Counted from the first letter of the stretch, positions 1 to 30,240 are shown. The stretch is 32,000 bases of DNA from Nostoc sp. PCC 7120 = FACHB-418 (GCF_000009705.1 NC_003267.1:60001-92000), one strand, 5' to 3'. Program-made: numbers and translations. The notes: generated by a model from the sequence alone, not told the origin.

Positions 1-1
1 T

Positions 2-211
2 GACCAATTTGAAACTATCGACTCAACGCCCAATCCTCTTACTCACGGACAATTTTTAGGAAATTTTGGGGGAGAACTACCGGACGAAACTATTTGGAGA
101 CTTGCCCAAGGAGATGAGACAGCACTTTCTGATATTGCTGATGGTGGGACTAAACAGCAGGCTAGTGACATCTTTAACAGACTTAAGGAGCTAGGAGCAT
201 GGGAACCATAG
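2..211 (+). CDS. 3' end of an unidentified protein-coding gene (partial, 5' end outside the window)
   Basis: Frame 2 is open from the window edge for 69 codons (DQFETIDSTPNPL...RLKELGAWEP) up to TAG at 209-211. It is absent from the ORF track because it has no start codon. No recognisable motif. Confidence 0.35.
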   Translation, partial: DQFETIDSTPNPLTHGQFLGNFGGELPDETIWRLAQGDETALSDIADGGTKQQASDIFNRLKELGAWEP

Positions 212-367
212 AAGTAGTCATTAATTATATTTGTCTTAATGACGAAGCAAACGGCTTTTGTAGATATTCGCCTGAACTCACATCAAGGATTGAGATTGAT
301 GATCCGTCTTGGGATGGGTACACACAACTAGGAGTTCGCCAACCAAAAAATGCTGTCTTGTTGGTCG

Positions 368-449
368 GCAGAGGAGCAGGGGAGCAGGGGAGCAGAGGAG
401 AGATTTGTACAAGTTTCCCCCCTGCCCCTCCGCACCTCTGCCCCTCTGC
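368..449. repeat. G-rich octamer run (GGAGCAGG-like x4) followed by its C-rich complement; imperfect long hairpin or MITE-like intergenic repeat
   Basis: gcagaggagcaggggagcaggggagcagaggagag (368-402), a 14-nt loop, then cccccctgcccctccgcacctctgcccctctgc (417-449). A 9-bp perfect hairpin ccacgcaaa/tttgcgtgg follows at 456-474, and a HIP1 site at 485-492. Confidence 0.7.
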
Positions 450-597
450 TTGCCACCACGCAAAGTTTGCGTGGCGAAGCACTAGCGATCGCCTCTCCTC
501 TAGCTTGCCCTCTCCACACTCCTTTTTTCCGTGCCGACAACCACGAACGGTATTCTTTATATCTCTATGGCACTGCTATGAATTTGGAGTGTAAACC

Positions 598-1203
598 ATG
601 AACCGAACCGTAAAACTCAAACTGGATGCACCTGTCACCTATGCTGCTTTACAATCCTTAACCAACATCAGCCAAGAAACCATATTTCAAGCACTTGATG
701 GCAACGAGACAGCTGCCGCAGAGGTAGCAGATTTCCGAATCAAACAAACTCAACGCGCCCAAAATGCCAAAGCTGTATTCGGCAACTTAAACCAAGGGTT
801 ACAAGCAACTGAGGCAGTCATGGCTGAAGAAACCCAGTTTCTCACCACCGCAGGTGCAAGCATCAACAAAATGGCTGATGGTTGGTCAAAGGTCAGAGCC
901 AGCGATGCGCGTTTGGGCTATGGACTACAGCAAAAAGTTATTGCATCTGATAACCAACTAGCCCAAGAACAGTTCCGGCATGGACGGACGCTTAACCTAT
1001 TGGGGGAATCTCACCGCGCCGCCCTTAGAGTGATTGAGATTGATGCAACAAAGGCACAATCTCAGGTTTGGCAGCAGGTAAAGGATAAACAGCTTGGTCT
1101 TTCAGGAGCAGACCTAGCCAAAGAAACACTCAAGGACATTCACAGACACGGTTCTAACGCCATGCGCTCTGTGAAAGGTTTCTTTAGACGCTTGATTGAC
1201 TAA
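598..1203 (+). CDS. hypothetical protein, predicted alpha-helical, no recognisable domain
   Basis: 201-aa ORF with an ATG start, lying between two structured intergenic repeats. Same strand as the following genes. Q/A/K-rich helical composition. Confidence 0.55.
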   Translation: MNRTVKLKLDAPVTYAALQSLTNISQETIFQALDGNETAAAEVADFRIKQTQRAQNAKAVFGNLNQGLQATEAVMAEETQFLTTAGASINKMADGWSKVRASDARLGYGLQQKVIASDNQLAQEQFRHGRTLNLLGESHRAALRVIEIDATKAQSQVWQQVKDKQLGLSGADLAKETLKDIHRHGSNAMRSVKGFFRRLID

Positions 1204-1264
1204 CAAGTAAATTCCCAAGGATGAACCCTCAATACCGTTCAGCAAACAAATTTGCTCATGAGGG

Positions 1265-1392
1265 CAAGCAGGGGTGCAGGGGTGCAAGGGAGCAGAGGAG
1301 AAATCTTATACTAATTCTTCCCCTCTGCCCAATTCCTTCCCTCTACCTCTTCCTTCTCCTCTGCTCCTCTGCCCCCCCGCTCCTCTGCTGCC
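1265..1392. repeat. Second copy of the G-rich-octamer / C-rich-complement hairpin repeat
   Basis: gcaagcaggggtgcaggggtgcaagggagcagaggag (1265-1300), a loop, then a C/T-rich arm cccctctgccc...ctcctctgctcctctgcccccccgctcctctgctgcc (1320-1392). Same architecture as 368-449. Confidence 0.7.
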
Positions 1393-1465
1393 GAGAGCGA
1401 AGAGATGTCTTCACCGAACGATATTTGGTTCATCCTTGGGAATCAATCTTTACAGGGTTTGGCCA

Positions 1466-2032
1466 ATGCTGACCAAAAATGAGAAAACACCTATTTACTT
1501 CAATGCTGAGATTGTTGATGAGTCGCCTACATCTTTAACCGGGGATGAATACGACTCTCAACTCTTACAACAGGCGATCGCCTCCACTGACAGTTCTATA
1601 ACTATATTTCGTGGCATTGCCCAAGGTGCAGTTTTAGCTGGTTTTCAACTGGTTTCAACCCAATCGCTGTATCTGGCTGGCTGTGTAGGACTGTTCCCGG
1701 CAGTAGTAGCTGGTTTACCAGTAGGTGCTTCAGTAGCTGCCACTCTCTGCTACTTGCGTTTTGAAAAAAGTCTGATTCCCAAAATTACCAATCGTCAAAA
1801 GTTGGCTATTGGTGTCACTCGTACTGCAATGCTGGCTGCTAGTTCTTACAAGTTAACCGGGGATGCCCAACAGATGGACTCTATAGCCCGTGGCAGTTTT
1901 CAAGTATTTACCCAGCAGGTGAGAGAGTTTGAAGGTATTGAGCAACCTAGTCAAAATCATTTCGGCTTCTTGTTGGGGTTTTGGGTATGTGCAGCCCTGG
2001 CACTGTTTTTATTTTTACGGAAGAAGCGATGA
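1466..2032 (+). CDS. small integral membrane protein (3-4 predicted TM helices), unknown function
   Basis: In-frame ATG at 1466 (MLTKNEKTPIYF...). The upstream part of track ORF 1274..2032 is only the C-rich repeat arm. Hydrophobic segments include AVLAGFQLV..LAGCVGLFPAVVAGLPVGASVAATLCYL and a C-terminal FLLGFWVCAALALFLFLRKKR. Its stop overlaps the next start as ATGA. Confidence 0.55.
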   Translation: MLTKNEKTPIYFNAEIVDESPTSLTGDEYDSQLLQQAIASTDSSITIFRGIAQGAVLAGFQLVSTQSLYLAGCVGLFPAVVAGLPVGASVAATLCYLRFEKSLIPKITNRQKLAIGVTRTAMLAASSYKLTGDAQQMDSIARGSFQVFTQQVREFEGIEQPSQNHFGFLLGFWVCAALALFLFLRKKR

Positions 2033-3933
2033 TGAAAGATGTTAAACCGAGCCAATTAGATCAACGCTCCTACAGTCTGCCACCACGTTTAGGTTTGGTT
2101 ATTAAACTATCTGTGGCAGGTGCTTTAGTTTGTGGCATAGCTGCCCATATCGGTGACGGTATAGCCAAGAAGGACATCTGTTTCTACCCCAAATCAGCCA
2201 GAATCCACGATGCGCCCATACTCGCAGGTGAGGGTAATCCAGAAGAACTATTGCTGGGTAAAAAATATTGTCGCTACGAACAGCGATCGCAAATTCCCGA
2301 ACCATATTTGAAGGCTAACCAGTACCGCACCAGCAACCCAAACTATAACCCTTGGGCATTCCTCCAGCATGAAGGCTTGTATATATTCCGCTCACTGCCA
2401 GCCGACAATCCATTTAAGATTCATTTGGGTATTGCAGCGATCGCATTTGGAGGGATAGGTTTGTGGGCCACTAGTAAGGCACAAGATTATTTTAGTGATA
2501 TTCGACCGCATTACCGAGCTACCAAGCAATTTGAAGGTGTAAAAGCCTCTTACAGTGTCAAACTGGGTGAGCAATTGTTGGAACTATCTGGTAACGAATT
2601 GCTGAAATACTTGCGTGGTATCAAAATTGCGGAAGCCAGACAGCAGTTTATCGCCAGCATTACCCCACAACAGCAGACAGCCCTACTTATGGCGATGTCG
2701 GCTGACGATTATTATGAGTTTGGTCACTTGTTAGATGGGGGTCAAAGCTTTGAGAAATTTGAGCCACAGCAACAGCCAGCCGCACAATTACCACACGGCA
2801 CACCCGGCACTGTGCAAGAGCAAGTACAACAGTCAACGCTTGCACCTCAAGATGTACCAACAGGCGATTATCTTCACCTATCGGAGAGCGTTGCACTAAC
2901 TACTCTGCAAAGTATAGCCCGTTCTGATGGTTCTACTGCTTTAGTTGCTGCCCCAGGCTCAGGAAAATCCGTTGCCCTTGATTACCTGATTCGGAGGATT
3001 CTGGATAGTGACAATAGTGCTGATATTTGGGTCATCAGTGCCAAAAATGATAGCTTTTGTGGTTTACGGGACAAGGGTAAGGTAATTGTCTTTGATCAGG
3101 AGCAACCAGAAGCAACTAAACGCACAATTGATCACTTTTATGACTGCTACAAGCAACGTAAGCAGTTACCTGAACATAAACGGGAATCATTACCACCGTT
3201 AATTCTGATTTTGGATGATTGGTTAGTTATCGCTGACCAACTTAGTAAAGCTTTCTCGGACTGGAATTATGGAAGTAAGTTACTTGATGTCTTACTGATT
3301 GGTAGAGAGTTTAACACTAAGTTTTTTGCTTCCCTTCAGTCTTTTAATTTGGCTGCATTAGGTATTGAAAAGATGGATTCTCAAACTCGTCTCTGCCTCA
3401 ATTTACTGTTATTAGGTAACAGGTATATCAAAAATGGTAGGGAACAAGAATCTTATGGAGTGCTGGAGTTAATTTTAAATAGGGGTGACATTATCCCAGG
3501 CAAGCAAGAACGGGAAGACATTAAGTCTAGATACCTTCAGATAAAACCTATATCTTATAAAAATTTCCGTCCCATCTTGATTGCTTCTTTGGGTGGTTTT
3601 GTTGTGGCACTGATGCCTAAACTATCAAAGCAGTCCGATTCTATTGCTGATGAAATACCTTATGAGGATAGAGTTTTTGACTTAGAGTTTAATTTAGAAT
3701 TGAACGGTCAACAATTAAAACATCAACAACAATTAAGTGAAGCAGCCAATAAAGTTTTAGAATACTTCCATAATGTGAAAAATAAAGTACCTAAGACATT
3801 ACGTGATTTAAAGAAAGCTGACAGGCTTATCAGCTACTCAGAACAGGAATTAATTGCTGGTTTACAGGAATTAATTCAGGCTGAAAAGCTCTTAGCTGGT
3901 GAAAATAATACTTATTTATTACCTGATTGGTAA
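2029..3933 (+). CDS. membrane-anchored P-loop NTPase, FtsK/HerA/TraB-like (putative DNA translocase) with a C-terminal helical (possibly wHTH) tail
   Basis: ATG at 2029 overlaps the upstream TGA (ATGA). There are two N-terminal hydrophobic helices (LVIKLSVAGALVCGIAAHI and IHLGIAAIAFGGIGLWA). Walker A is AAPGSGKS (2950-2970) and Walker B is PPLILILDDW. The family assignment is by motif only. Confidence 0.6.
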   Translation: MMKDVKPSQLDQRSYSLPPRLGLVIKLSVAGALVCGIAAHIGDGIAKKDICFYPKSARIHDAPILAGEGNPEELLLGKKYCRYEQRSQIPEPYLKANQYRTSNPNYNPWAFLQHEGLYIFRSLPADNPFKIHLGIAAIAFGGIGLWATSKAQDYFSDIRPHYRATKQFEGVKASYSVKLGEQLLELSGNELLKYLRGIKIAEARQQFIASITPQQQTALLMAMSADDYYEFGHLLDGGQSFEKFEPQQQPAAQLPHGTPGTVQEQVQQSTLAPQDVPTGDYLHLSESVALTTLQSIARSDGSTALVAAPGSGKSVALDYLIRRILDSDNSADIWVISAKNDSFCGLRDKGKVIVFDQEQPEATKRTIDHFYDCYKQRKQLPEHKRESLPPLILILDDWLVIADQLSKAFSDWNYGSKLLDVLLIGREFNTKFFASLQSFNLAALGIEKMDSQTRLCLNLLLLGNRYIKNGREQESYGVLELILNRGDIIPGKQEREDIKSRYLQIKPISYKNFRPILIASLGGFVVALMPKLSKQSDSIADEIPYEDRVFDLEFNLELNGQQLKHQQQLSEAANKVLEYFHNVKNKVPKTLRDLKKADRLISYSEQELIAGLQELIQAEKLLAGENNTYLLPDW

Positions 3934-3947
3934 AGCATCTGTCGTAG

Positions 3948-4089
3948 TGCCGTAAGTTCTAGATGCTACCTTTAAGTGATTTATCCTCTTTGTACGGCAT
4001 AGTCTCAAATCACGGCATGGCTTACCAGCAAAGCATTTTAGCCTACGGCATATTTACGGCAAGTTACGGCAGGCACGAAACTCACGGCA
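3948..4089. repeat. Array of seven YACGGCA motifs (one inverted) immediately 3' of the ATPase gene; candidate protein-binding site array (clt, centromere or iteron-like)
   Basis: Motif positions are tgccgta 3948-3954 (inverted), tacggca 3993-3999, cacggca 4011-4017, tacggca 4044-4050, ttacggca 4054-4061, ttacggca 4064-4071 and cacggca 4083-4089. Three of them are spaced 10-11 bp apart. Confidence 0.75.
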
Positions 4090-4139
4090 GATATCTAGAT
4101 TGAATTAGTATTAGCTAAAAATCCCTAAATAAGAATTCA

Positions 4140-4295
4140 GAAGTCAGGAGTCAGAACTCAGTATTGATTTTAGACTACTAAGTAATGAGTACAATTTTAA
4201 AAGCTCATTTCTTGTAACTCAAATAAAATTTACTTACTTCTTGAAACTCCCATCTTTTAATAGATAGATTATTCTTAATTCTGACTCCTGACTTC
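4140..4295. repeat. Perfect 17-bp inverted repeat (gaagtcaggagtcagaa / ttctgactcctgacttc) enclosing 122 bp of AT-rich DNA
   Basis: The left arm at 4140-4156 is the exact reverse complement of the right arm at 4279-4295. It lies upstream of the 4355 CDS. The AGTCAGG tandem heptamers are typical of cyanobacterial short repeats. Confidence 0.8.
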
Positions 4296-4354
4296 CTTTT
4301 ATTACATTAATTCCTACAAATGCTTAATTAAACCCATCAAAAAAGGCATGAGTT

Positions 4355-5197
4355 ATGACAGTTTTTACAAGATTCCGTCAAGTTAATTTCTCAGCAATTG
4401 AAAGCCTTGCTCAAAATTTAAAGTCGGCGCTTCAAGAGATAGTCTCTCTAGAGAAAGATAAACAATACTTTTTTATCCAAAATGAAGCAATCTTAGTTCA
4501 CAAGCTTGTGAAAAATGCTGCTAACTCAATTAATCATTTGGTGCGTATAGATTTGGATAACCAAAAAGCTGTTGAAGTTGTCAAAACTGTAGTTAAGTAT
4601 TTACATACTGCCTATATTAGAGTTTCCAGAACTGCTGGTTATGTTGCACAGAAAGTAGAACGGTTATGGAGTGAGGCATTTAATCTGTTACCTTCAGGTA
4701 CGATAATACAGCCTGAACTGTTTGCGCCTAATGAAGTTAAATCTGTTGAAGAAAATAAAACTCCTATTCTTGGTGTTATTACCAAGTGGTTTAAGGATCA
4801 TGCTCAACGTTGGGCTTTTCAACAACAACAACAATTAGATAAACAGTATTTTGATTACATCAACAACGGTAAACCAAAGCCCCCGGTTGCAGTACAGCTA
4901 TGTCTTGATTTAGAAAGTGTTGCTCCTGCCAACCTTGTAGCCAAAATAGATGGTGATAACGGATGTTCAGAGGTTTATACTTTTGAGCAAATACACTGTT
5001 ACGGTTATCAAAAGCTGGAAGCGCTGAACAATCATACTTTAACTATCGACAGTATCAAGAATTTAACTCTACGGGCTGCGCGAAGACTGGCTAGTGAGTT
5101 GGGACTGCCTCAAAAAATCAATGGGCAGGATTTGAGAAAGGAGGCGCTGATTGCTTCTCTGCTGGACTGGTGGCAGCAGCAAGCTTACCAGTGTTGA
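4355..5197 (+). CDS. hypothetical protein with a C-terminal SAP/HeH (Rho_N-like) helix-extended-helix motif; possible DNA-binding protein
   Basis: 280-aa ORF. The C-terminus LTLRAARRLASELGLPQKINGQDLRKEALIASLL fits the L..aa.LA.elGl....G.rKeeLI..L pattern of SAP/HeH motifs. The rest is unrecognised. Confidence 0.5.
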   Translation: MTVFTRFRQVNFSAIESLAQNLKSALQEIVSLEKDKQYFFIQNEAILVHKLVKNAANSINHLVRIDLDNQKAVEVVKTVVKYLHTAYIRVSRTAGYVAQKVERLWSEAFNLLPSGTIIQPELFAPNEVKSVEENKTPILGVITKWFKDHAQRWAFQQQQQLDKQYFDYINNGKPKPPVAVQLCLDLESVAPANLVAKIDGDNGCSEVYTFEQIHCYGYQKLEALNNHTLTIDSIKNLTLRAARRLASELGLPQKINGQDLRKEALIASLLDWWQQQAYQC

Positions 5198-5228
5198 GCT
5201 ACGACAAGTTCTTTAACTGGGAGTAAAG

Positions 5229-5387
5229 CAGGTGGCGTTAGCGTAGTGTCAGGGGCGGGTGGCAATTATAGTAATTAATCCATGAGATATCTATTGCCCG
5301 TCCCTGACACCATCTGCTTTAAGCGGAGCGGCTACCAGTTCCTCGCCGAGTTGTTAACTGTCCGTTTTTAGCCGCCTAATATGGACA
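5229..5387. repeat. Structured intergenic element, copy A (shares 91-99 bp with 23694-23784)
   Basis: Core 5289-5387 is atctattgcccgtccctgacaccatctgcttta...ccagttcctcgccgagttgttaactgtcc...gcctaatatggaca. Copy A also has an inverted partner, gtgtcaggggcgggtggcaat (5246-5266), that pairs with attgcccgtccctgacac (5293-5310). Confidence 0.7.
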
Positions 5388-5521
5388 CTTCATCAGGGTA
5401 AAATAATCGGCTGATTTGGTATTTTCAGCTTTTAGAGGTGGATTAAAAAGTTTCTCAACCCTAGAGATTACACGTTATGGCTCTTATATGTACTGCGTTC
5501 TCTCACTCAAGATGTTCTTCT

Positions 5522-8500
5522 TTATCTCCACCATCGTGACACATCCTGAATAGCAGAAGCTGTATCTTTCATTGCTTGTTTACCACCTAAAGTAAATATC
5601 ACAGGAGTTAATGCATTTATATCACTCAGTAAATTTGGGCGAGTGTGAATAGATAAAATGTTCAAAGTATCTCGCCAGAGATCAAAAAGTGGAGTTTTTT
5701 GTATTTGTGAAAGTTTATCAGCCAAACTACTTATGGCATAGGCGCGCTTATGCGTAGACTGAATCTCCCTAGCAGCAGCCAGTGCCTCACTTAACAATTC
5801 AGGTGGCAGTAGAGTAGCCAAACTACTTAGAGTGTTGGCGCGATACTCCTCATTCTGAATCTCCCTAGCAGCAGCCAGTACCTCACTTAACAATTCAGGT
5901 GGCAGTAGAGGAGCCAAACTACTGAGGGCGTTGGTGCGATACTCCTCATTCTGAATCTCCTTAGCAGCAGCAAGTGCCTCACTTAACAATTCAGGTGGTA
6001 GTAGAGGAGCCAGACGGCTTAGGGCTTTGGCGCGATAATACTCATCCTGAATCTCCTCAGCAGCAGCTAGTGCCTCACTTAACAACTCTGGTAAGTTATC
6101 AGCCAAACTACTTAGGGTTTTGGCGCGATAATACTCATCCTGAATCTCCCTAGCAGCAGCTAGTGCCTCACTTAACAATTCAGGTGGTAGTAGAGGAGCC
6201 AGACGGCTTAGGGCTTTGGCGCGATAATACTCATCCTGAATCTCCTTAGCAGCAGCAAGTGCCTCACTTAACAATTCAGGTAGCAGTAGAGGAGCCAAAC
6301 TACGTAGGGCTTTGGCGCGATAATACTCATCCTGAATCTCCTTAGCAGCAGCAAGTGCCTCACTTAACAACTCTGGCAACTTATCAGCCAAACTACATAG
6401 GGCTTTGGCGCGATAATACTCATCCTGAATCTCCTTAGCAGCAGCAAGTGCCTCACTTAACAACTCTGGCAACTTATCAGCCAAACTACGTAGGGCATAG
6501 GCACGATAATACTCATCCTGCATCTCCCTAGCAGCAGCAAGTGCCTCTGGTAACAACTTTGGCAGTAGAGGAGCCAGACGGCTTAGGGCTTTGGCGCGAT
6601 AATACTCATCCTGAATCTCCTTAGCAGCAGCAAGTGCCTCACTTAACAATTCAGGTAGCAGTAGAGGAGCCAAACGGCTTAGGGCTAAAGCGCGATCATA
6701 CTCAGACTGAATCTCCTTAGCAGCAGCAAGTGCCTCTGGCAACAACTTTGGCAGTAGAAGAGCCAAACTACTGAGGGCTAAAGCGCGATACTCCTCATTC
6801 TGAATCTCCCTAGCAGCAGCCAGTACCTTACTTAACAATTCAGGTGGCAATTTATTAGGCAAACTACTTAGAGTGTTGGCGCGATACTCCTCATTCTGAA
6901 TCTCCCTAGCAGCAGCCAGTACCTCACTTAACAATTCAGGTGGCAATTTATTAGGCAAACTACTTAGAGTGTTGGCGCGATACTCCTCATTCTGAATCTC
7001 CCTAGCAGCAGCCAGTACCTCACTTAACAATTCAGGTGGCAGTAGAGGAGCCAAACTACTGAGGGCTAAAGCGCGATACTCTTCATCCTGAATCTGCCTA
7101 GCAGCAGCCAGTGCCTCACTTAACAATTCAGGTGGCAGTAGAAGAGCCAAACGGCTTAGGGCTAAAGCGCGATCATACTCATACTGAATCTCTCTAGCAG
7201 CAGCCAGTGCCTCTGGTAACAACTCTGGCAACTTACCAGCCCAACTACTTAGGGTTTTGGCGCGATAATACTCATCCTTAATCTGCCTAGCAGCAGCCAG
7301 TGCCTCACTTAACAATTCAGGTGGCAGTAGAGGAGCCAAACGGCTTAGGGCTAAAGCGCGATCATACTCAGACTGAATCTCTCTAGCAGCAGCAAGTGCT
7401 TCTGGCAACAACTCTGGCAGTAGAAGAGCTAAACTACTTAGAGCGTTGGCACGATTTGACTCATCCTGAAACTCCCTAGCAGCAGCCAGTGCCTCACTTA
7501 ACAATTCAGGTGGTAGTAGAGGAGCCAGACGGCTTAGGGCTTTGGCGCGATAATACTCAGACTGAAACTCCCTAGCAGCAACCAGTGCCTCACTTAACAA
7601 TTCAGCAGGCAGTAGAGGAGCTAAACTACTTAGAGCGTTGGCACGATTTGACTCATCCTGAAACTCCCTAGCAGCAGCCAGTGCCTCACTTAACAATTCA
7701 GGTGGTAGTAGAGGAGCCAAATTACTTAAAGCATAGGCGCGACCCTCCTCATCCTGAATCTCCCTAGTAGCAGCCAGTGCCTCTGGCAACAACTCTGGCA
7801 GTAGAGGAGCCAAACTACTTAGGGCTTTGGCGCGATAATACTCATCCTGAAACTCCTTAGCAGCAACCAGTGCCTCTGGCAACAACTCTGGTATTAGAGG
7901 AGCCAAACTACTTAAAGCATAGGCACGACCCTCCTCATCCTGAATCTCCCTAACAGCAGCCAGTGCCTCTGGCAACAACTCTGGCATTAGAGGAGCCAAA
8001 CTACTTAGGGCTTTGGCACGCTTATACTCATCCTGAATTTCCCTAGCAGCAGCCAGTGCCTCTGGCAACAACTCTGGCAGTAGAGGAGACAAACTACTTA
8101 GAGATCTGACGCGATTTGACTCATCCTGAATCTCCCTAGCAGTAGCCAGTGCCTTACTTAATAATTCAGGTGGCAGTAAAGGAGTTAAACTACTTAGGGC
8201 ATAGGCACGCTCTAACTCAGCTTGAATCTCCCTAGCAGCAGCAAGTGCCTCACTTAAAAACTCAGGTAGCAGTAGAGGAGCCAAACTACTTAGGGCGTTG
8301 GCGCGATTTGACTCATCCTGAATCTCCCTAGCAGCAGCCAATGCTTTCCTTAGCCCTAATTCTTTTAGGTTTGGTGGCAAATGATTGACTAGCTGTGTAA
8401 GCAAGTAGGCTTTATTTTCTGGGTTCGAGCTTTGTAGCACGTAAGCGAGTCCTTGCTGGGGAGTCCAGACATTTTTTTGAACTAACGCAATCAACAGTTG

Positions 8501-9967
8501 GGCTGGTAAATTAGCTGCCAGACTATTAAGGGATGCAATAATCAAAGCATAGCGACATTGCATCCCAATGACTTCAGGTAGGGATGTAAGAGTCCAGGAG
8601 CCTTCTGCCGATTGCCAAGCACGAGCAATATCAGTTACAAAATTGGCAGTTTGCCCCAAGCTCGCGCACGCTTCATACCAACCATTACCGCCTGCTGAAG
8701 TTTCCTCTTGTAAAAGTTGATGTATCTGATTTAATTGGTTCGCTTGCTGGAAATGCCAAGTTAAATGAGCATGAATATAATCATCAGCAGGTAATGTATG
8801 CCATTGCCCTGATTGAGTTTTTTCTTGATAACGGTCTAATAACGCCGAATGAGCAACAGTCAAACTGAATCCCAGTCCTGGTAGTTTTCCTGGTTGATTA
8901 GGAACTTTCTCTCCTATAAGTAATCCAATAGCTACATCGTGCATTAAGTCATGTAGCCTGTAAGTTGGTTTTTTGTCAAACTGTATTGTTCCCGTTTGCA
9001 GTAATGCTTTAGACCGTAATTGACGTAATATTGTCAAAGCTTGTCTAGGATTAACACCCCAAAGCGTTGCCGCCATTGCATGGGTAATAACCACATCTTC
9101 TGGTAAAACTCCAAACCAAGCAAATTGTTGTAATAATTCTGGAGTTAAAGAATTCAAGCTGAGATTAAAAGAAGCTACCAGAGAATACTTTTTGCGCTTT
9201 TCTTCACTACTACAATCTACAAACAAGTCAAGTGTATCTAAATGAGCTATTTCTGCCTTTAAATCTTTTAGCAATTCTTCCCAGGCTATTCCATCTGCTC
9301 GCTGCGCTGCTGCCAATTCTAACGCTAAGGGTAAATAACCAACCGTTTCTGCTAAAAGTTCCGCCTGCTGTTTTTCTGCTTGGGTAAATTGCTTCAGATG
9401 TGGTTGACTTTCTAGAAGCTTTAGCGATTCGCTCTTTGTCATCACGTCCAGATCATAGCGGCTTGCCGCTAGTATCACAGCCTCTCGTGTAGTTACAAGT
9501 ACCCGACAACCAGCACCACCTACTTGAAAATATTCAACGTGTTCCGGATTCCAAGCGTCATCTACCACCAGCAAAACTTTCTTATCATAAAGTAAGGTCT
9601 GCAAGTGTCTTTTTGCATCATCTGATTGAATGGGTTTATAGTTATTGTCTCCTAAAGCCAGAATCCAACTACTTAATAATGGCAACAAATCAGGTTTTTG
9701 ACCTAAAGTAGCCCACAAAACCCCATCTTTAAAATAAGCTTGAACCTCATTATCATGGGCTATAGCCGCAGCTAATGTTGATTTACCAATTCCACCTAAT
9801 CCATAAATGGCACTAACAACTAAAGTTCCTTGACTATTTGTTTCTTGCCCCAGTAAAACTGCTTTTACTGCTTCATGGTGTAAGGGACGTTCTACAAAAT
9901 TAATTGGTAAAGGTGGTGCTTGGAAAGGTTTTTCTAACTTTACCCGTTCTCCAACGGGCGGCTGTAG
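5522..9967 (-). CDS. NB-ARC (AP-ATPase/STAND) NTPase with helical linker and 28 tandem HEAT/ARM-like repeats. The reading frame is open up to the in-frame TGA at 9968-9970 and has no canonical start before the P-loop.
   Basis: Motifs are P-loop GLGGIGKST (9776-9802), Walker B KKVLLVVDDAW, RVLVTTRE, GLPL motif GYLPLALELAAA and MHD motif RLHDLMHDVA. These are followed by 28 copies of EALAAAREIQDEYYRAKALSSLAPLLPPELLS. The track ORF (9718) starts at a TTG after the P-loop, but the frame is open upstream to 9967. Confidence 0.85.
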   Translation of the reverse strand, partial: LQPPVGERVKLEKPFQAPPLPINFVERPLHHEAVKAVLLGQETNSQGTLVVSAIYGLGGIGKSTLAAAIAHDNEVQAYFKDGVLWATLGQKPDLLPLLSSWILALGDNNYKPIQSDDAKRHLQTLLYDKKVLLVVDDAWNPEHVEYFQVGGAGCRVLVTTREAVILAASRYDLDVMTKSESLKLLESQPHLKQFTQAEKQQAELLAETVGYLPLALELAAAQRADGIAWEELLKDLKAEIAHLDTLDLFVDCSSEEKRKKYSLVASFNLSLNSLTPELLQQFAWFGVLPEDVVITHAMAATLWGVNPRQALTILRQLRSKALLQTGTIQFDKKPTYRLHDLMHDVAIGLLIGEKVPNQPGKLPGLGFSLTVAHSALLDRYQEKTQSGQWHTLPADDYIHAHLTWHFQQANQLNQIHQLLQEETSAGGNGWYEACASLGQTANFVTDIARAWQSAEGSWTLTSLPEVIGMQCRYALIIASLNSLAANLPAQLLIALVQKNVWTPQQGLAYVLQSSNPENKAYLLTQLVNHLPPNLKELGLRKALAAAREIQDESNRANALSSLAPLLLPEFLSEALAAAREIQAELERAYALSSLTPLLPPELLSKALATAREIQDESNRVRSLSSLSPLLPELLPEALAAAREIQDEYKRAKALSSLAPLMPELLPEALAAVREIQDEEGRAYALSSLAPLIPELLPEALVAAKEFQDEYYRAKALSSLAPLLPELLPEALAATREIQDEEGRAYALSNLAPLLPPELLSEALAAAREFQDESNRANALSSLAPLLPAELLSEALVAAREFQSEYYRAKALSRLAPLLPPELLSEALAAAREFQDESNRANALSSLALLLPELLPEALAAAREIQSEYDRALALSRLAPLLPPELLSEALAAARQIKDEYYRAKTLSSWAGKLPELLPEALAAAREIQYEYDRALALSRLALLLPPELLSEALAAARQIQDEEYRALALSSLAPLLPPELLSEVLAAAREIQNEEYRANTLSSLPNKLPPELLSEVLAAAREIQNEEYRANTLSSLPNKLPPELLSKVLAAAREIQNEEYRALALSSLALLLPKLLPEALAAAKEIQSEYDRALALSRLAPLLLPELLSEALAAAKEIQDEYYRAKALSRLAPLLPKLLPEALAAAREMQDEYYRAYALRSLADKLPELLSEALAAAKEIQDEYYRAKALCSLADKLPELLSEALAAAKEIQDEYYRAKALRSLAPLLLPELLSEALAAAKEIQDEYYRAKALSRLAPLLPPELLSEALAAAREIQDEYYRAKTLSSLADNLPELLSEALAAAEEIQDEYYRAKALSRLAPLLPPELLSEALAAAKEIQNEEYRTNALSSLAPLLPPELLSEVLAAAREIQNEEYRANTLSSLATLLPPELLSEALAAAREIQSTHKRAYAISSLADKLSQIQKTPLFDLWRDTLNILSIHTRPNLLSDINALTPVIFTLGGKQAMKDTASAIQDVSRWWR
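5711..8347 (-). repeat. Coding tandem repeat, 28 units of 93-96 bp (31-32 aa), many units near-identical at DNA level
   Basis: The period is visible directly. For example, tcctgaatctccttagcagcagcaagtgcctcacttaacaa recurs about every 94 bp, and 6841-6936 is essentially repeated at 6935-7030 (protein units 15 and 16 are identical). Confidence 0.9.
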
Positions 9968-11076: not shown

Positions 11077-12443
11077 CAGAACAAATCGATTCTTTTGCTA
11101 ATACGTAAATTAGCTTATCTCTAATGAAATAACTGTTGTCTAAGGGTAAATTAGTTAACTATTTAGCCATGAGTAAGTAAGCTTATCCCTAAAAATAAGC
11201 AACAATCATAACTAAATTATTGATAGGCTAGTTTACGCTAAAGCTAGAACTCTTTCTAAATATTTATTGTCCATTGCTGCCAGAAACTGTTTATTTTTGA
11301 TTCCCCGTTTCACACGCTTCTCTTTACCTAAAAGATTTACTGCTATCTGCCGCATTACTGCAAAATTTTGTGGAGCATTATCTTTCCTAATCCGGCAGTC
11401 ATCTTCTTTTAAAGCTACATCTAATATCCAATGCAATGAATTTTCTATTCCCCAGTGACTGCGAACAGAATTAGCAAATTGTTTGGCATTATCTTCAAGA
11501 CTACTAATAAAATAACGAATCTCCACTGTTGTTTTAGCATCTACTTGCCGGACGGATTCTACCATCCCAATACTATTAAACTTTGACCAAGCTGAATCAG
11601 GGTCAAGTCGGGATTAGATTCCTGTTAACATCGCGTAGTTGCGGATTTCATGACGACCATGCCCATGTTCTTCTGTTTTGTATGTGCTATGTTGAAAATC
11701 TTGAAAACCTTTGCCTATCTCTGCTTTAAATAGTTGCTCTACTTCATCATACAGATTACCTTGATTCTTTTTGAGGGTAATTACATAATCTGCGTTTTGT
11801 TGGCTAATTAACTTCACAATCTCCTTCTGGCAACCGATGGCATCAATTGTCACAATACAACCAGATAGTTCTAATACTTTTATTAATTCGGGAATTGCTG
11901 TAATTTCATTTGATTTCTCATCCACCTTTACCTGCCCTAACACTAACTTATTTGTAGTTGCCCACGCACTTACCATTTGTATTGCACTTTGGTTACTGCT
12001 TCTATCATGGGAGCCACATAAAGTTTTGCCGTCAATTGCTACTACCTCACCATCCGTCCTGATCTTTATTGACTTTATCCAGTTTAAGAAACATGACTGA
12101 AATTGCTGTGAATCCAATTGTGCAAAGACTCGTGCAAATGTATCGTGTGATGGTATTCCATTTGGTAGCTCCAAAAACGTTTTCAACCACTCATATTTTG
12201 TGCAGCCATACAATTCAATTGCCACCCAACTGTCCGCTCCACATATCACTGCACATAAAGCAATGGTGAGAATGTCAATTAATTTGTGCCGTTTTGTCCG
12301 ATCTACTCTTGGATCTTCCATCTGTGCAAAGTGGTCAGTAATCGTGATTTTGGGCTTGAGCTTCATGAAGAGAGTGGTACGGTAGTTCTTCTTTTTTTCT
12401 CGCACTCTTGAATTTACTACAAAAATGAACCCACATTGCCCTG
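11077..12443 (-). mobile_element. ISAs1-family insertion sequence (ends tentative)
   Basis: It contains the ISAs1/H-repeat-type transposase. The right end ...cattgccctg (12443) gives the CAGGG terminus I recall for ISAs1. The imperfect partner is cagaacaaatcgattcttttgctaatacgtaaatt at 11077-11111, against cagggcaatgtgggttcatttttgtagtaaatt. No target duplication was found. Confidence 0.4.
11233..12366 (-). pseudogene. ISAs1-family (H-repeat-associated) DDE transposase, inactivated by one in-frame TAA
   Basis: Sequence reads MKLKPKITITDHFAQMEDPRVDRTKRHKLIDILTIALCAVICGADSW...IPSHDTFARVF, then RSHWGIENSLHWILDVALKEDDCRIRKDNAPQNFAVMRQIA. The two track ORFs (11614..12405 and 11233..11565) are in the same frame and are separated only by TAA at 11614-11616. 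Confidence 0.8.
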
Positions 12444-12633
12444 GCAGCCTACGGTTGCCACAAACCTCACCCCCCCCTCAAAACGATTATTATTATTTGC
12501 TTACTTCTGGACAGTCAGGAAAAAGCGTCCTTCTGCGTAGGCGCAGCCCGCCACAGGCATCACTATCCAAAAAAACTTTTTGGTTTACTGTAGATAACAC
12601 AACTCTTTTCTTGGTTCGTGAGTCAGGCAAATT

Positions 12634-13473
12634 ATGCAACTACATCGATTCGACAACATTCAGGAGTTCTGGCACTCCACTCAGGCTTACTTGCTCCAGC
12701 ATCAGGTAGAAAACAATGTTTTGCTCAGTATCTCGCATACCTTGTTGCATAACCCAGAACGTTATCTAGGCAAGCCTTATTTAGCAATTGTCCAAACAAG
12801 TGGTGAGATTCTGGCTGTTGCCATCCGCACCCCACCCCAAAAATTGATCCTATCCAAAGCCCAGAATATGGATGCCTTGCGGTTGATTGCTCAAGATTTG
12901 CGTCAAGAGCAACTGCCAGGAAGTATGGGACTGGCAACTGAAGCAGAAATATTCTCGCAGACTTGGCAAGCCCTGACAGGACAATTCTATCAACGGTCGG
13001 TGGTAATGAAAATTTACCAATTAACGGCAGTGCAAACAGTCTCAACGTCCAGAGGATATCTTAGACTGGCAACTGAAGGCGATCGCTCTATTTTGACTAA
13101 GTGGCTTTCTGCATTTTTATCTGAGATCGATGAGGCGGTGAGCGAAGATGTCGAACACCAGGTAGATAATCGGTTGAAACAGCAGAATACTTATTTTTGG
13201 GTTGATAGCACTCCAGTTTCAGTTGCGTCTAGTAAACAAGTGTTACCTACAATTGGTCGGATCAATTTAGCTTATACACCACCAGAGTATCGTCGTAAAG
13301 GATATGCCACTACCTGTGTCGCTGCATTAAGCCAAAAACTGCTAGATCAGGGATGCCGCCATTGTTTCCTCATAGCAGATTTAGCTAATTCCACAGCCAA
13401 TCATATTTATCAAGCGATTGGGTATCGCCCCTTAAGCGATTGGCACGAATACTCATTCACCTCCAAGCAGTAA
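12634..13473 (+). CDS. GNAT-family N-acetyltransferase (two-domain, catalytic GNAT fold C-terminal)
   Basis: 279-aa ORF. An acetyl-CoA motif-A-like segment PPEYRRKGYATTCVAALSQKLLDQG is followed by ANHIYQAIGYRP. Confidence 0.7.
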   Translation: MQLHRFDNIQEFWHSTQAYLLQHQVENNVLLSISHTLLHNPERYLGKPYLAIVQTSGEILAVAIRTPPQKLILSKAQNMDALRLIAQDLRQEQLPGSMGLATEAEIFSQTWQALTGQFYQRSVVMKIYQLTAVQTVSTSRGYLRLATEGDRSILTKWLSAFLSEIDEAVSEDVEHQVDNRLKQQNTYFWVDSTPVSVASSKQVLPTIGRINLAYTPPEYRRKGYATTCVAALSQKLLDQGCRHCFLIADLANSTANHIYQAIGYRPLSDWHEYSFTSKQ

Positions 13474-13848
13474 GCATAATAAAGCAATCGCTTCCAGGCT
13501 TGGGAAATAAATCAAACCAGAAATATTAATTTTTTCATCAGCTCTTAATCTTGTTTGCCATTGAGAGTACTTTAGATGCGTTCGCCCTGATGTATTAATT
13601 GAGGCAGTAAAATATTGATTCTCAGTAATATATAGATATTGTCTAGGTAAAATAAATGCCTTTTTAATATACTTTTAAAGCTATTTAACCTAGATATATT
13701 TTTACTAACAAATGGGTATAACTTTTAACTAATTTATTTAGCTAAACTTTCGCACGAACGTAAAGATGTTGGCTGTTACGTATTCTCTCGTAGCTTGTTT
13801 CAGAAATCAAATATGATTCCCATAGCAGATATAGCTGTGCTTCACATT

Positions 13849-15048
13849 TCAAATAGCTTGTTTTAAATTAGAAGCTGTCTTTTCTGGATTACCGGAAAAT
13901 GGGAAAACTAAAATACTCTGAATATTGGGATTATTCACTAATTCTTTTAAACGACTAAGCTGCTTATCTGTAATTGCAATTCCAGCATATTTTTGGGCGT
14001 AATTTAGTTCTTCAGTAAAATTCTTATCATTATATGCTTGAATGAATACTCGGTCTACACCCCACTGTTCCCAATCAGCCGCAAAATATTTTTTAGCCCA
14101 ATAAGGGTTATGATGACAAATATCAAAACTTACCAAAGAATTCGCTTCTTTCATCGAGCTTGTCATTTGTTGTACAAACTTAGTTAAATGCTTAGTTCTG
14201 TCAGTTTTTCCCGGTAATTCAGCATAATATCCTAGATAATCATCCCATTGAACTGCATCAACATTAGGATATTTCTTAACGAACTCAACTGAAATATTTT
14301 TGAAGAAAGTAGCAACTTCTGGTTTCTCTACATCAAGTACATAATGGTCAATCCCGGCATAAGTTTTATCTATTCCTGGCACCATCCAATTTTTAGCAAC
14401 AGCTAAATCAAAAATCGGACTATTTTTATCTATTTTAATTCCCTTCTCAAAATAAGCATGAACTTGCATTCCTTGTTTATGTGCTTCATCAATCAACCAA
14501 TTTAACCATTTTTCTTGAAATTGGTTAGGACAACTGCTATATCCTAAAGTTTGCTGCATCACATCACTTTTGTACATCGTACAACCATTACCCCAAACAC
14601 CATGAATAATGGTATTGATACCTTGAGAACGATAGTAGCGAACTCTCTGACGAATCGTTTGCTCATCGGCATTATTTGTAGCTTGATAACGACTTAAATA
14701 AATCCCTCTAATTAGTTTTTTCTCCCAAGGATTTGGAGGTAATACTGTTTTTCTCTCTTGTGTTATTGTGCTTGAAGCTTTGTTATTTTTAGAAGCTACA
14801 TTTACAGATGTAGGTAAAGAATTCTTTGGAGTTGCAGAAGCAGTGGGTATGGAAATTGAGGGGGACGTTGGAGTAGGATTGAAAATTGGGATATTTATTC
14901 GTTCATCCTTGGATAAAAATCTGCTGAACATATCTAAATTTTCTGCTTGACTGAACCACCAGTAACCACCTCCCGCGACAGCTAGTATTACGGATAATGG
15001 AATATTTAGGCACCCACATCCACTACGGTCTTTTTTTTGGTGCGGCAT
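13849..15048 (-). CDS. membrane-anchored glycoside-hydrolase-like protein (GHL10/YngK-type TIM barrel), tentative
   Basis: 399-aa ORF with an N-terminal TM segment (LNIPLSVILAVAGGGYWWF) and a Ser/Thr/Pro-rich linker. IRGIYLSRY...YYRSQGINTIIHGVWGNGCTMYKS...LIDEAHKQGMQVHAYFE resembles the GHL10 family pattern. Confidence 0.5.
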   Translation of the reverse strand: MPHQKKDRSGCGCLNIPLSVILAVAGGGYWWFSQAENLDMFSRFLSKDERINIPIFNPTPTSPSISIPTASATPKNSLPTSVNVASKNNKASSTITQERKTVLPPNPWEKKLIRGIYLSRYQATNNADEQTIRQRVRYYRSQGINTIIHGVWGNGCTMYKSDVMQQTLGYSSCPNQFQEKWLNWLIDEAHKQGMQVHAYFEKGIKIDKNSPIFDLAVAKNWMVPGIDKTYAGIDHYVLDVEKPEVATFFKNISVEFVKKYPNVDAVQWDDYLGYYAELPGKTDRTKHLTKFVQQMTSSMKEANSLVSFDICHHNPYWAKKYFAADWEQWGVDRVFIQAYNDKNFTEELNYAQKYAGIAITDKQLSRLKELVNNPNIQSILVFPFSGNPEKTASNLKQAI

Positions 15049-15868
15049 ATTAATTTCAATATTATCAGTTAATCTCGCTATATATACAGATTACTACCAT
15101 TGTAGATTTACCGAAGAAGAATTCAGAATACATCTCTCATAAAATATTTTCAGAGTGAATCTTCACAAATCAAAATCGAGAGTAAATGTATCATCATCAG
15201 GTTTTTCTGATGTTTGAGGTATAACGGTAACCAGATACCACCTGAGTCACAACGCGCAATTATTACTGAGACGAAAGCAAATATTAAGATGAACTACCCC
15301 TGGCTACTTCGTTGAGCCAGGGGTTTCTACATCCCCTAGCGTAGCCTGAGATTTTTGACGTTTCCTTTGACCCAGTTGCTTCATGCTTCCCGCAGTTTTG
15401 CGGGTACGTGAAGTAGAGCTAGAATCATCTACGCCTTCGAGACTCGTTCCAAATCCCGGTAGTCTTCCTGAGTGCCAAAGCAACATAACCTCGCCAGAAG
15501 CGATGTCACGCTGCTGAGTGTAGTTACAATTAGAGCAAATATGCACTCTCTGGTCTAAAGTTTTCTTTTCCTGATGCCCACATTTAGGGCAAGTTTGTGA
15601 TGGTTTTATCTTCTTAGTTGGTGCTTCAGAAAACACACCACTAAAATCATCCAACTTAGCCTTGAGGGATTGTTTTATCATCCCCATACCAACATCAAGA
15701 ATTGATTTGTTCAGACCAGATTTTTGCTTCTTGCGTTTACCCTTTTTAGCTTTGGCACTCATATTTTTGACTTCTAGTTGTTCAGTTACCACCGTGCTAT
15801 TACCGCTAATTATTCGTGTAGTAACTTGATGAACCCAGTTCTGACGCTGATTAGCTACTTTTCTATAT

Positions 15869-17181: not shown

Positions 17182-18009
17182 TATAACTTACTAATCCGCG
17201 ATTGAACTTTCTTCCATCTCCTAGAAGCTTTCTGTCTTTTCTTGTAATTAGGTGAACGCTTACGACGTTTGGCTTTACTTAATTGTTTGATTTTCTTCTC
17301 TGCATTCCTAAAAAATCTAGGGGCAGAAATTAACCCGTTTTCTTCTCCGTTAGTCCAAGCAATTGCATCATTGCAACCCAAATCAATTGCAACCACACCA
17401 CTATCTGTTTTACGGCTACTTCTCAGCATCTCATCATCTACATCCAAAACTATAGATGCGTACCATTTACCATTGCGGTGAACTATGTCTAGTGCTTTGG
17501 GATGACCCCACAACCTAGACTTACCCCGCATTTGTATAGAACCAATCTTAGCTAGTTCTAGATAGCCGTTATCGCCTGTACTATGACATTTCCATCCTGT
17601 AAAAGATGGGTAGCTCCAACCAGAATAGCGGCGAATTGATTTGAATTTAGGATAACCACCTAGACCTTTGAAGAAACGTTGGAATGCTAAATCAACACGT
17701 TTTAATGTTGATTGCAATGATTGGGAATTTATTTGTTTATATTCAGTCCAAACTTCCTTAAAATCTGGTAGGCAATTTTGTTGATCAAAGTACGAAACTG
17801 ACTTACCAAATTTCTTGTAAGACGTAATTCTATTAGACACTGCGGCATTGTAGAGTTCTTTATGAAGTCTCCGGTGATAGTGCAATAAATCATTCACTTT
17901 CTTGGTTGGATATAACCTAAAAGTTGCTCTACGCAATGCCACTAAATATCACCCCCTGTAGTAATCAAGACTCATGGTATAGTACCATTGGTGAAATTCA
18001 GTTGTCAAC

Positions 18010-18432
18010 ATGAAAACTCAGTTTAGAAAAGCGTCCCATGCTGTTTTTAGCATTCACTTACACGTTGTACTTATTGCCAAATATCGTAAAGAAGTTATTA
18101 CACAGGAAATACTTGTTAAGTTACAAGAAGTATTCAACCGTGTTTGCGAGAAACGTAAATGCTTGCTTACTGAGTTTAGTGGCGAAGACAACCATGTGCA
18201 TTTGTTGATAGACGTGCATCCTGACAACAATATTTCACAGCTAATTGGTTCACTCAAATCAGCATCAAGTCGCATTATTAGAAAAGAGTTTCAAGATTAT
18301 CTAAAACAATATTATTGGAAAGAGAAAGACCCTAGTTTTTGGACTGATGCCTACTCTGTCAATTCAGTGGGTGGCGCACCGCTAGAAATAGTCAAAGAAT
18401 ATATCCGTTCTCAGGACAAACCCGAAAGATAA
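18010..18432 (+). CDS. tnpA: IS200/IS605-family Y1 (HUH) transposase TnpA
   Basis: 140 aa, with HUH motif NHVHLLIDV and catalytic-Tyr region FWTDAYSVNSVGG. This is the typical size and layout. Confidence 0.9.
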   Translation: MKTQFRKASHAVFSIHLHVVLIAKYRKEVITQEILVKLQEVFNRVCEKRKCLLTEFSGEDNHVHLLIDVHPDNNISQLIGSLKSASSRIIRKEFQDYLKQYYWKEKDPSFWTDAYSVNSVGGAPLEIVKEYIRSQDKPER

Positions 18433-30185: not shown

Positions 30186-30240
30186 TAGTAAACCCTGGTA
30201 AATCAATGAAGCCAAAAGTCGGAAGTTAGACTTTTTATGG

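Follow-up and report, generated by a model that had tools for sequence, protein, structure and literature searches.

The DNA analysed here is a 32,000-nucleotide (nt) window of Nostoc sp. PCC 7120 = FACHB-418 (NC_003267.1:60001-92000; positions are counted from its first letter). Four open reading frames (ORFs) run along the same strand in its first part, at 598–1203 (201 residues), 1466–2032 (188 residues), 2029–3933 (634 residues) and 4355–5197 (280 residues), all of them where an earlier note, made from the sequence alone, had placed them. The coupling that it described is also present: the ATG of the third gene, which encodes an ATPase (2029), overlaps the TGA of the 188-residue gene (2030–2032) in an ATGA. 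The grouping of the four genes into one natural unit was a mistake. The first three, referred to below as g201, g188 and the ATPase, form the end of a conserved operon of about ten genes found on plasmids of filamentous cyanobacteria, which extends upstream to a gene for a ParM-like protein, and gene 4 is accessory. Positions 598–4089 are the distal half of this conserved plasmid operon. They end in an array of seven YACGGCA repeats, which the earlier note had overlooked and which is newly found here. Comparison of related loci leads us to propose that the array is the cis-acting recognition site of the C-terminal tail of the ATPase. The parts of the region are listed below.

598–1203 (+): g201, a conserved soluble protein of 201 residues, the first of the trio (identity between loci; phage homologue).
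1466–2032 (+): g188, an integral membrane protein coupled to the ATPase (hydropathy; ATGA overlap; found at 30 of 34 loci).
2029–2508 (+): ATPase residues 1–160, transmembrane (TM) helix TM1 (21–41), an α/β domain of about 85 residues, and TM2 (131–149) (hydropathy; AlphaFold2 (AF2) model with a predicted local distance difference test score (pLDDT) of about 80).
2509–2865 (+): ATPase residues 161–279, long helices followed by a Q/P-rich linker of low confidence (AF2 secondary structure, pLDDT 28–53).
2866–3633 (+): ATPase residues 280–535, RecA-like P-loop motor of the FtsK/HerA superfamily (pLDDT 85–94; Foldseek; subthreshold Pfam matches; invariant columns).
3727–3933 (+): ATPase residues 567–634, predicted C-terminal winged-helix domain with tail type A, ...SYSEQELIAGLQELIQ...NTYLLPDW (helix-helix-helix-β-β topology; PDB fold matches).
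3948–4089 (no strand): seven YACGGCA repeats, the proposed recognition site of the tail, one inverted (3948) and six direct (3993, 4011, 4044, 4055, 4065 and 4083).

The AF2 model of the ATPase has a mean pLDDT of 73.5, with values of 85–94 over residues 280–535. At its N-terminus, TM1 (about residues 21–41) is clear from hydropathy and TM2 (about 131–149) is taken from the model. The α/β domain between them carries two conserved cysteines, Cys51 and Cys81, and by the positive-inside rule it would be extracytoplasmic (N-in/C-in topology). The motor contains a Walker A motif, AAPGSGKS (residues 307–314), in which G310, G312, K313 and S314 are invariant in 40 homologues, and a Walker B motif, LILILDDW (391–397), which has the hhhhDD/EE pattern and lies on a predicted strand (391–396). 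R426, also invariant in the 40 homologues, is a candidate arginine finger. Hydropathy, the AF2 model and the alignment thus bear out the two TM helices and both Walker motifs named in the earlier note, and the model contains a structured C-terminal domain where it had described a helical tail.

A Foldseek search of the PDB with this model returns EccC (4nh0), EssC (4lya), TcpA (6o1x) and FtsK (6t8o and 2ius) as the top matches, with E-values of 2e-5 to 3e-4 and target-normalised TM-scores of 0.35–0.49, and VirD4 and TrwB structures are absent from the top 50. Subthreshold Pfam matches point the same way: DUF87/HerA recurs in 26 of 40 close and 17 of 54 distant members of the family, and FtsK_SpoIIIE in 9 of 40 and 3 of 54, respectively; AAA_10 and TrwB_AAD_bind (4 of 40) also appear below threshold. 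The description of the protein as a membrane-anchored ATPase of FtsK/HerA type therefore holds at the level of fold. Its Walker motifs sit on a RecA-like core and its closest structural relatives belong to the FtsK-HerA superfamily; the model and the alignment contain a single ATPase domain, not the three tandem domains of EccC and EssC, and no all-α domain is visible in the model. BFVD adds matches, at 1e-6 to 1e-4, to the A32-like/FtsK-HerA packaging ATPases of virophages and giant viruses. Curated resources give little more. All four proteins of the region lack matches above threshold in Pfam, NCBIfam, PHROGs and PADLOC. The ATPase does not reach the Pfam models T4SS-DNA_transf, TraG-D_C and TrwB (P-loop_TraG, E 0.17), has no NCBIfam match, and finds only a weak terminase P-loop in PHROGs (E 0.009). 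In PADLOC it matches no defence model beyond a weak P-loop hit to mad8 (E 1.6e-4), and the partner proteins have no hit at all. In a profile search of PDB sequences, matches of the ATPase family are confined to the P-loop. An exhaustive profile search (E<=1e-3) yields 603 family representatives at 50% identity, and the ATPase therefore belongs to a sizeable uncurated family inside the FtsK-HerA superfamily.

A short linker joins the motor to the C-terminal domain. The last 96 residues of the ATPase, modelled separately, have pLDDT values of 70–79 over the final 60. All top PDB matches of this tail are winged-helix DNA-binding domains (Rpa2-WH, Z-alpha, MntR, MarR/MepR, LexA and Zur), with TM-scores of up to 0.85 and root-mean-square deviations of 1.5–2 Å over 60–66 columns; the E-values are only 0.02–0.15 because the domain is short. 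One member of the ATPase family is labelled a MarR-family regulator by its source. At the fold level, these matches agree with the winged helix-turn-helix (wHTH) that the earlier note had proposed to look for at about residues 570–634, and the models suggest that the tail binds DNA.

Seven of the nine YACGGCA copies in the 32-kb window, where about four would be expected, are packed into 142 bp behind the stop codon of the ATPase gene (3933). Similar arrays of other repeats stand behind homologous genes. Related loci were gathered with the conserved N-terminal 257 residues of the ATPase as the query, and copies of a 6-mer were counted in an interval that starts 30 nt ahead of the stop codon and extends 250 nt past it. 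Four pairs of tail and motif emerge:

Tail type A, ...SYSEQEL...LPDW: YACGGCA, 5–8 copies against 0.04–0.14 expected; 12 loci.
Tail type B, FKVNGERFTVEQIKGWMYEIV...KLNQI: AGACAC(C), including GACACC, 6–10 copies; 13 loci.
Tail type C, FKVKG.RFSSEELKRLFNELV...NTIEI: GACAGA, 4–7 copies; 8 loci.
Fourth tail, of a distant metagenomic member: GGTGTAGA/CTACACC, with 10–12 copies of GGTGTAGA in a slightly wider interval, 60 nt ahead of the stop to 300 nt past it; 1 locus.

The repeat type tracks the tail type at all 34 array-bearing loci. Tails are shuffled with respect to motor types (Walker A context) and to the variants of the ParR-like protein, and the repeat stays with the tail. The YACGGCA array is kept at 12 of 12 loci with a type A tail, including those of proteins that are about 52% identical and have a different N-terminal membrane module, and the type C array frequently begins within the last codons of the ATPase gene. 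Repeat units are much more conserved than the spacers between them (0.98 against 0.78, 0.95 against 0.60 and 0.91 against 0.31) and are under the stronger constraint.

Other roles of the array were considered and rejected. A centromere for the ParR-like protein is not a good description, as parM on this replicon is preceded by another, parC-like array and the ParR-like variants do not track the repeat. An origin of transfer (oriT) would be far from its enzyme: in a 29.6-kb plasmid (L002), more than 13 kb separate the array from the mobC/relaxase region. Because of this separate array and this distance, the repeats behind the ATPase gene are taken to be neither a partition centromere nor an oriT. 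An operator of the downstream gene does not fit types B and C, in which the downstream genes vary, and replication iterons do not fit a layout in which the rep genes are on the opposite side of the operon.

The family as a whole is a mosaic. In the family alignment (with L035 and L036), the N-terminal membrane modules are of three or more unrelated kinds, which occur with several motor types and at least four tail types, and g201 and g188 vary along with the module (28% identity in the plasmid pNPM5). The N-terminal membrane part of the ATPase is 78–97% identical at 29 loci with differing motors and tails, and g201 is 80–93% identical across loci with differing motors, compared to 28% for the pNPM5 counterpart. 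That these two remain conserved while motors and tails diverge suggests a conserved partner in the cell envelope. The g201 sequence contains one proline, and it has no family match in Pfam, NCBIfam or PHROGs and no match in the profile search of the PDB. Hydropathy of g188 shows a hydrophobic block at about residues 48–97 and a C-terminal anchor at 164–186, in agreement with the TM nature assigned to it earlier.

The gene census covers 34 loci, several of which are cut upstream, so that the counts are minima. The ATPase is present at all 34, g188 at 30, g201 at 27, the ParM-like gene and g132 at 26 each, g88 at 24 and g63 at 21; small ParR-like genes complete the conserved set. These genes share one strand at all loci and are overlapping or tightly spaced, with the ParM-like gene at the head and the ATPase last at 26 of 34 loci. 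g132 homologues (26 of 34) are upstream of g201 every time. The exact ATPase sequence of the window occurs on two replicons of 287 kb (AP018218.1) and 107 kb (CP183820.1). On both, the upstream series consists of the ParM-like gene followed by ORFs of 136, 53, 88, 63 and 132 residues, and a ribbon-helix-helix (RHH) copy-control gene, called on the 107-kb replicon, precedes the ParM-like gene. The same gene order is found on pNOS3756_2 of Nostoc sp. NIES-3756 (94% DNA identity), on Tolypothrix/Nostoc plasmids of about 30 kb, on pNPM5 and, once, in a chromosome, that of Nostoc piscinale. Five or six small soluble proteins with no assigned function are encoded ahead of the trio. The earlier note suggested examining the upstream replicon and searching for the same genes elsewhere; the plasmid context and the trio are found, and gene 4 as a constant fourth member is not.

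The ParM-like protein matches MreB-like_C above the Pfam threshold and ParM_N weakly; apart from this, scans of the upstream operon proteins against Pfam, NCBIfam, PHROGs and PADLOC give no match above threshold. The small ORF that follows its gene would, from its sequence, be RHH-like. An actin-like ParM, a small ORF for a putative adaptor and upstream repeats, the components of a ParMRC system, are therefore all present at the operon head, outside the window, and none of the trio corresponds to a known ParMRC component. It was correctly stated in the earlier note that no relaxase, type IV secretion system (T4SS), integrase or partition family is recognisable within 598–5197. The absence of an associated partition gene was misjudged, as the ParM-like gene stands at the operon head, 2.3 kb before the window begins. 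A preprint of 2025 about ParMR in cyanobacteria describes an atypical, mostly plasmid-borne ParM clade and mentions neither FtsK nor the ATPase of this operon. On the replicon of the window itself, parC-like 9-bp tandem repeats (L038:5412-5535) lie about 230–350 bp upstream of parM, outside the window; they comprise three copies of AATAGATCC, two or three of ATTACATCC and a second block, and are distinct from the YACGGCA array. In the chromosome of Nostoc piscinale CENA21, a second run of AGACAGAC-type repeats occurs inside the 3′ end of a ParR-like ORF of 137 residues (L005:7290-7375), and the array behind the type C ATPase of that locus has the same motif.

A tblastn search of PLSDB finds the ATPase on 48 plasmids, all of filamentous cyanobacteria, of which 30 are typed as mobilizable, 12 as non-mobilizable and 6 as conjugative. 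The relaxase genes are of varying MOB type and distant from the operon, and pNPM5, a complete 41-kb plasmid, carries the operon and no relaxase. Wherever a host is named, it is filamentous (Nostocales, Oscillatoria, Microcoleus, Phormidium, Leptolyngbya and Stenomitos). A single strain can harbour six or more plasmids with the operon, and several co-resident plasmids differ in tail and repeat type; plasmids of the same type share a host in two strains, FACHB-3891 (B and B) and Mojavia (C and C).

The trio is not confined to plasmids. In a viral structure library, the best match of the ATPase is a protein of a Nodularia siphophage (E 5e-21), and nine Nodularia phage records of 139–147 kb encode homologues of g201, g188 and the ATPase in identical order. 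In the large lytic-type siphophage vB_NspS-kac65v151 (NC_048756.1; L044), these are at L044:5176-5817 (g201; 29% identity over the full length, E 1e-20), L044:6906-7448 (g188; 33% identity, E 5e-29) and L044:8986-11124 (ATPase; 28% identity over 531 residues, E 9e-44), and there is no ParM gene within 9 kb on either side of the ATPase match. The trio therefore forms a unit of its own, of which both plasmids and phages make use. Capsid, portal and other virion genes were not seen on the plasmids of 28–41 kb examined.

FtsK and SpoIIIE are septum-anchored, RecA-like hexameric pumps that use short oriented repeats, KOPS and SRS, and whose C-terminal winged-helix (gamma) domain reads 8-bp motifs. 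The cyanobacterial ATPase resembles them in that FtsK motors are among its best fold matches and in its predicted motif-reading winged helix. Unlike it, FtsK has four TM helices, α and β motor subdomains and motifs that are skewed genome-wide instead of one local array. FtsK and SpoIIIE are, furthermore, chromosomal, whereas the present protein is encoded on mobile elements, and the window ATPase matches neither FtsK_SpoIIIE nor Ftsk_gamma above the Pfam threshold.

TraB of Streptomyces is an FtsK-like membrane translocase whose C-terminal helix-turn-helix (HTH) recognises 8-bp clt repeats and which acts with Spd membrane proteins (PMC4447253, PMC5365140). Like TraB, the ATPase is plasmid-borne and, at the level of fold and architecture, combines a membrane N-terminus, an FtsK-like motor and a C-terminal (winged) HTH in one polypeptide. 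In both systems, short direct repeats lie at or overlap the 3′ end of the translocase gene (8 bp in clt, 7–8 nt here); the plasmid-specific arrays at 34 loci are, by sequence, candidate sites of this kind. Specificity varies between plasmids, the small membrane partners come from translationally coupled genes, and the hosts are multicellular and filamentous. The analogy with TraB, raised in the earlier note as a speculation, is strengthened by the clt-like array of 7-nt repeats, which changes with the tail type, and by the plasmid context. In contrast to TraB, the cyanobacterial family has a diderm host, a two-TM anchor with a folded periplasmic domain, a ParM-led operon and a relaxase on most carriers. 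It also misses Pfam FtsK_SpoIIIE, and because it fails this sequence test, the ATPase should not be filed as a TraB homologue. TraB homologues are reported only in Actinobacteria (PMC3548315).

Other members of the superfamily share fewer of these traits. TcpA of the Clostridium perfringens plasmid pCW3 has two N-terminal TM helices and a single compact FtsK-like domain (target-normalised TM-score 0.40–0.43), but it acts alongside a relaxase and a T4SS, neither a repeat array nor a tail that reads sequence is known for it, and it is reported from Firmicutes only (PMC3548315). VirD4/TraG/TrwB proteins are also FtsK-HerA ATPases with a two-TM N-terminal anchor and are frequent on mobilizable plasmids, but the all-α domain that is expected of them is not visible in the present model, and their Pfam and NCBIfam models are not reached. 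TdtA, the donor ATPase of transjugation in Thermus thermophilus, is likewise encoded by a mobile element and is an FtsK-HerA ATPase associated with the membrane, which is believed to drive double-stranded DNA (dsDNA) out of the donor; unlike the present ATPase, it is HerA-like, paired with NurA, and has neither a DNA-binding domain nor cognate repeats (PMC5365140). Among solved structures, EccC and EssC score best against the motor, and they share the N-terminal two-TM anchor, but they have three tandem ATPase domains, protein substrates and no winged-helix tail.

Taking these comparisons together, we favour the view, by analogy, that the ATPase family comprises sequence-directed, FtsK-like DNA pumps of mobile elements. 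The winged helix would read the YACGGCA array directly behind its own gene and thereby load the motor, presumably a hexamer, onto its own replicon. The motor would then pump double-stranded plasmid DNA through the cytoplasmic membrane, the likeliest site being the septum between neighbouring cells of the filament, so that plasmid DNA could be transferred or spread from cell to cell. The ParM-like filament encoded at the operon head may bring the plasmid to the pole. In our estimation, this full mechanism, a sequence-addressed dsDNA translocase that works like Streptomyces TraB/clt and carries DNA across septa, falls slightly short of probable. A bolder version, in which the trio, with ParM filaments feeding it in the case of plasmids, is devoted to spreading DNA from cell to cell in multicellular cyanobacteria and serves plasmids and even large siphophages, is doubtful. 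Gene order, conservation, the assignments of fold, the repeat arrays and their agreement with the tail type are observations; that the tail binds DNA, that the motor forms hexamers, translocates DNA and sits at the septum, and what it does for the cell or the plasmid, are inferred.

Several points weigh against the proposed mechanism. The E-values of the fold searches are modest, and KaiC and DnaB score about 10-fold weaker than the FtsK clade; as this is within one order of magnitude, discrimination in favour of the clade is moderate. None of the 94 members scanned reaches the threshold of Pfam FtsK_SpoIIIE (PF01580), the model that covers FtsK, SpoIIIE and TraB. The tail and the array adjoin each other, and because they are adjacent co-inheritance alone would be enough to associate them. 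At L015 and L022, whose tails are of a further type, D, and at L043, all of them with a different, HTH-like tail, no repeats cluster in the 300 nt behind the gene, and no array of short repeats lies behind the phage ATPase gene. An alternative route of transfer would be available to the 36 of 48 carrier plasmids that encode a MOB relaxase, and the operon shared with ParM argues for maintenance as much as for transfer. The mechanism also offers no explanation of how dsDNA enters a plasmid-free neighbour past two membranes and the septal peptidoglycan, and the evidence is computational throughout.

A reading in which the ATPase serves plasmid maintenance starts from the same observations. Bound to the array, it would tether or pump plasmid copies at the division septum together with ParM, ParR and parC, much as in clearance by FtsK/SpoIIIE or in polar anchoring, so that neither daughter cell loses the plasmid, and no intercellular transfer would take place. 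The position of the ATPase at the end of a tightly packed operon headed by ParM agrees with this, as do the KOPS and SRS precedents; co-resident plasmids with different tail and repeat types are what functions that avoid incompatibility would show, but the same-type pairs in FACHB-3891 and Mojavia are not. ParMRC systems are self-sufficient, and the host FtsK already clears septal DNA without sequence specificity. Segregation in the pure sense is weakened by the separate parC-like array and by the phage copies of the trio, which have no recognised plasmid-partition context, and we consider maintenance rather unlikely. The ATPase could also be an unconventional, TcpA-like type IV coupling protein (T4CP) that passes a single plasmid strand, with its relaxase attached, to a T4SS whose genes are elsewhere in the cell; the operon would then be a mobilisation function. 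The build of the protein, a P-loop domain preceded by two TM helices at the N-terminus, is that of a T4CP, TcpA is among the best fold matches, TrwB_AAD_bind appears below threshold as described above, some homologues go under the NCBI name ‘type IV secretory system conjugative DNA transfer family protein’, and 36 of the 48 carrier plasmids are typed as mobilizable or conjugative. No T4CP is known, however, to have a sequence-reading winged helix and a cognate repeat array. This tail, the lack of a match to any T4CP model, the relaxase-free pNPM5 and the phage copies weaken the coupling-protein reading; VirD4 and TrwB rank outside the top 50 fold matches, the relaxases are of different MOB types and far from the operon, and TcpA homologues are reported only in Firmicutes (PMC3548315). 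It is distinctly unlikely.

A role outside DNA transport is very improbable. The ATPase would in that case drive a type VII-like (EccC/EssC-type) exporter, for which the top fold matches and the small soluble proteins encoded ahead of the trio could be cited, or it would be the virus-type packaging ATPase of a cryptic membrane-containing element, as the A32-like matches might suggest. EccC and EssC have three ATPase domains to the one found here, however, and the winged-helix tail with its matching repeats points to a DNA substrate, while packaging has to contend with plasmids on which no virion genes were seen and with a terminase match that is weak.

The remaining features of the beginning of the window are the following.

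2–211 (+): 3′ end of g132, whose first part lies before the window (alignment with NIES-3756, L001:14370-14768; C-terminal sequence ...KELGAWEP*).
199–594 (+): small lineage-specific ORF, g82-like, frameshifted by an insertion (intact 82-residue form at L001:14756-15004).
327–480 (no strand): 154-bp hairpin insertion resembling a miniature inverted-repeat transposable element (MITE), absent at the 94%-identical NIES-3756 site, with 50-nt inverted arms and 8-nt GCAGGGGA-type internal repeats.
1219–1426 (no strand): MITE-like hairpin insertion of about 208 bp between g201 and g188, where the gap in NIES-3756 is 55 nt, with 36-nt inverted arms.
4355–5197 (+): gene 4, a lineage-specific downstream gene found only at 10 closely related type A loci.

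Gene 4 encodes 280 residues here and 332 in its relatives, the difference including a 49-residue internal deletion, and it is truncated at the C-terminus at three loci (L007, L008 and L012). It has no family match in Pfam, NCBIfam or PHROGs and no profile match in the PDB; the HeH/SAP-like tail ascribed to it in the earlier note is unsupported by Pfam, NCBIfam and the PDB profile search. Being lineage-specific, often truncated and without profile support, it was rejected both as a member of the operon and as a HeH/SAP protein. Behind the ATPase, types B and C carry different genes, and in other lineages the genes there are unrelated singletons. The g82-like ORF, present at three loci only and broken here by the 154-bp insertion, is probably not a core part of the operon. 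Both MITE-like insertions are related, rich in 8-nt GCAGGGGA/TCCCCTGC-type repeats and specific to this replicon; the one at about 1219–1426 is flanked by a 17-nt perfect inverted repeat and splits the intergenic hairpin between g201 and g188. A search of Rfam with positions 1–5600 gives subthreshold miRNA-like and miRNA-precursor matches on the MITE hairpins and nothing else, and a scan for promoters and terminators finds no excess over the shuffled expectation.

Further along the window, a 1398-residue NB-ARC (STAND) protein (5522–9718, −) contains several tens of short, tandem, degenerate helical repeats (...LPELLSEALAAAREIQDE.YRA.ALSSLAP...), the number of which differs between the two replicons that carry the operon (1366 and 1460 residues). 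The stretch 11233–18432 is rich in insertion sequences (IS): a split ISAs1-like DDE_Tnp_1 transposase (11233–12405), IS605 OrfB/TnpB-like fragments (15304–15969 and 17181–17942), an ISAzo13 transposase (15899–17116) and an IS200-type Y1 transposase (18010–18432). Cell-wall enzymes recur on replicons with the operon, at window positions 13849–15048 (−), on pNPM5 (L035:22217-27302), at L005:17428-21911 and at L043:2370-3701; they include a GHL10 glycosyl hydrolase, an M15 peptidase, SH3/peptidoglycan-binding proteins, a giant M23/DPBB protein and a GH108/C39 protein. Their recurrence may be a coincidence or may be tied to the crossing of septal peptidoglycan. The ORF at 25722–30215 was considered as a relative of a 1516-residue TMP/M23 protein near the chromosomal copy of the operon and turned out to be an unrelated β-helix protein.

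Full-text searches of the literature found no description of this set of genes. Conjugation of dsDNA in which one FtsK-like pump reads a cis-acting locus of repeats is known from mycelial Actinobacteria alone. If the bolder version is true, no TraB-type conjugation, double-stranded and independent of a relaxase, would have been met before in bacteria other than Actinobacteria or in a diderm, here a multicellular phototroph, and phages would have a previously unrecognised way of spreading that has no extracellular stage. The proposed mechanism would also offer a first insight into how the many Nostocales plasmids of 30–100 kb persist and move, and it would raise the possibility that cyanophages exploit the same route. 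The pairs of a tail and its 7-nt repeat could serve as orthogonal parts for addressing DNA, and the arrays as a simple marker for annotating these plasmids. Should the role of the operon be limited to maintenance, the family would still be an uncharacterised class of sequence-directed translocases. If it is DNA spreading, an independent system unrelated in sequence would follow the logic of TraB, and the spreading of DNA in multicellular bacteria would have evolved convergently.

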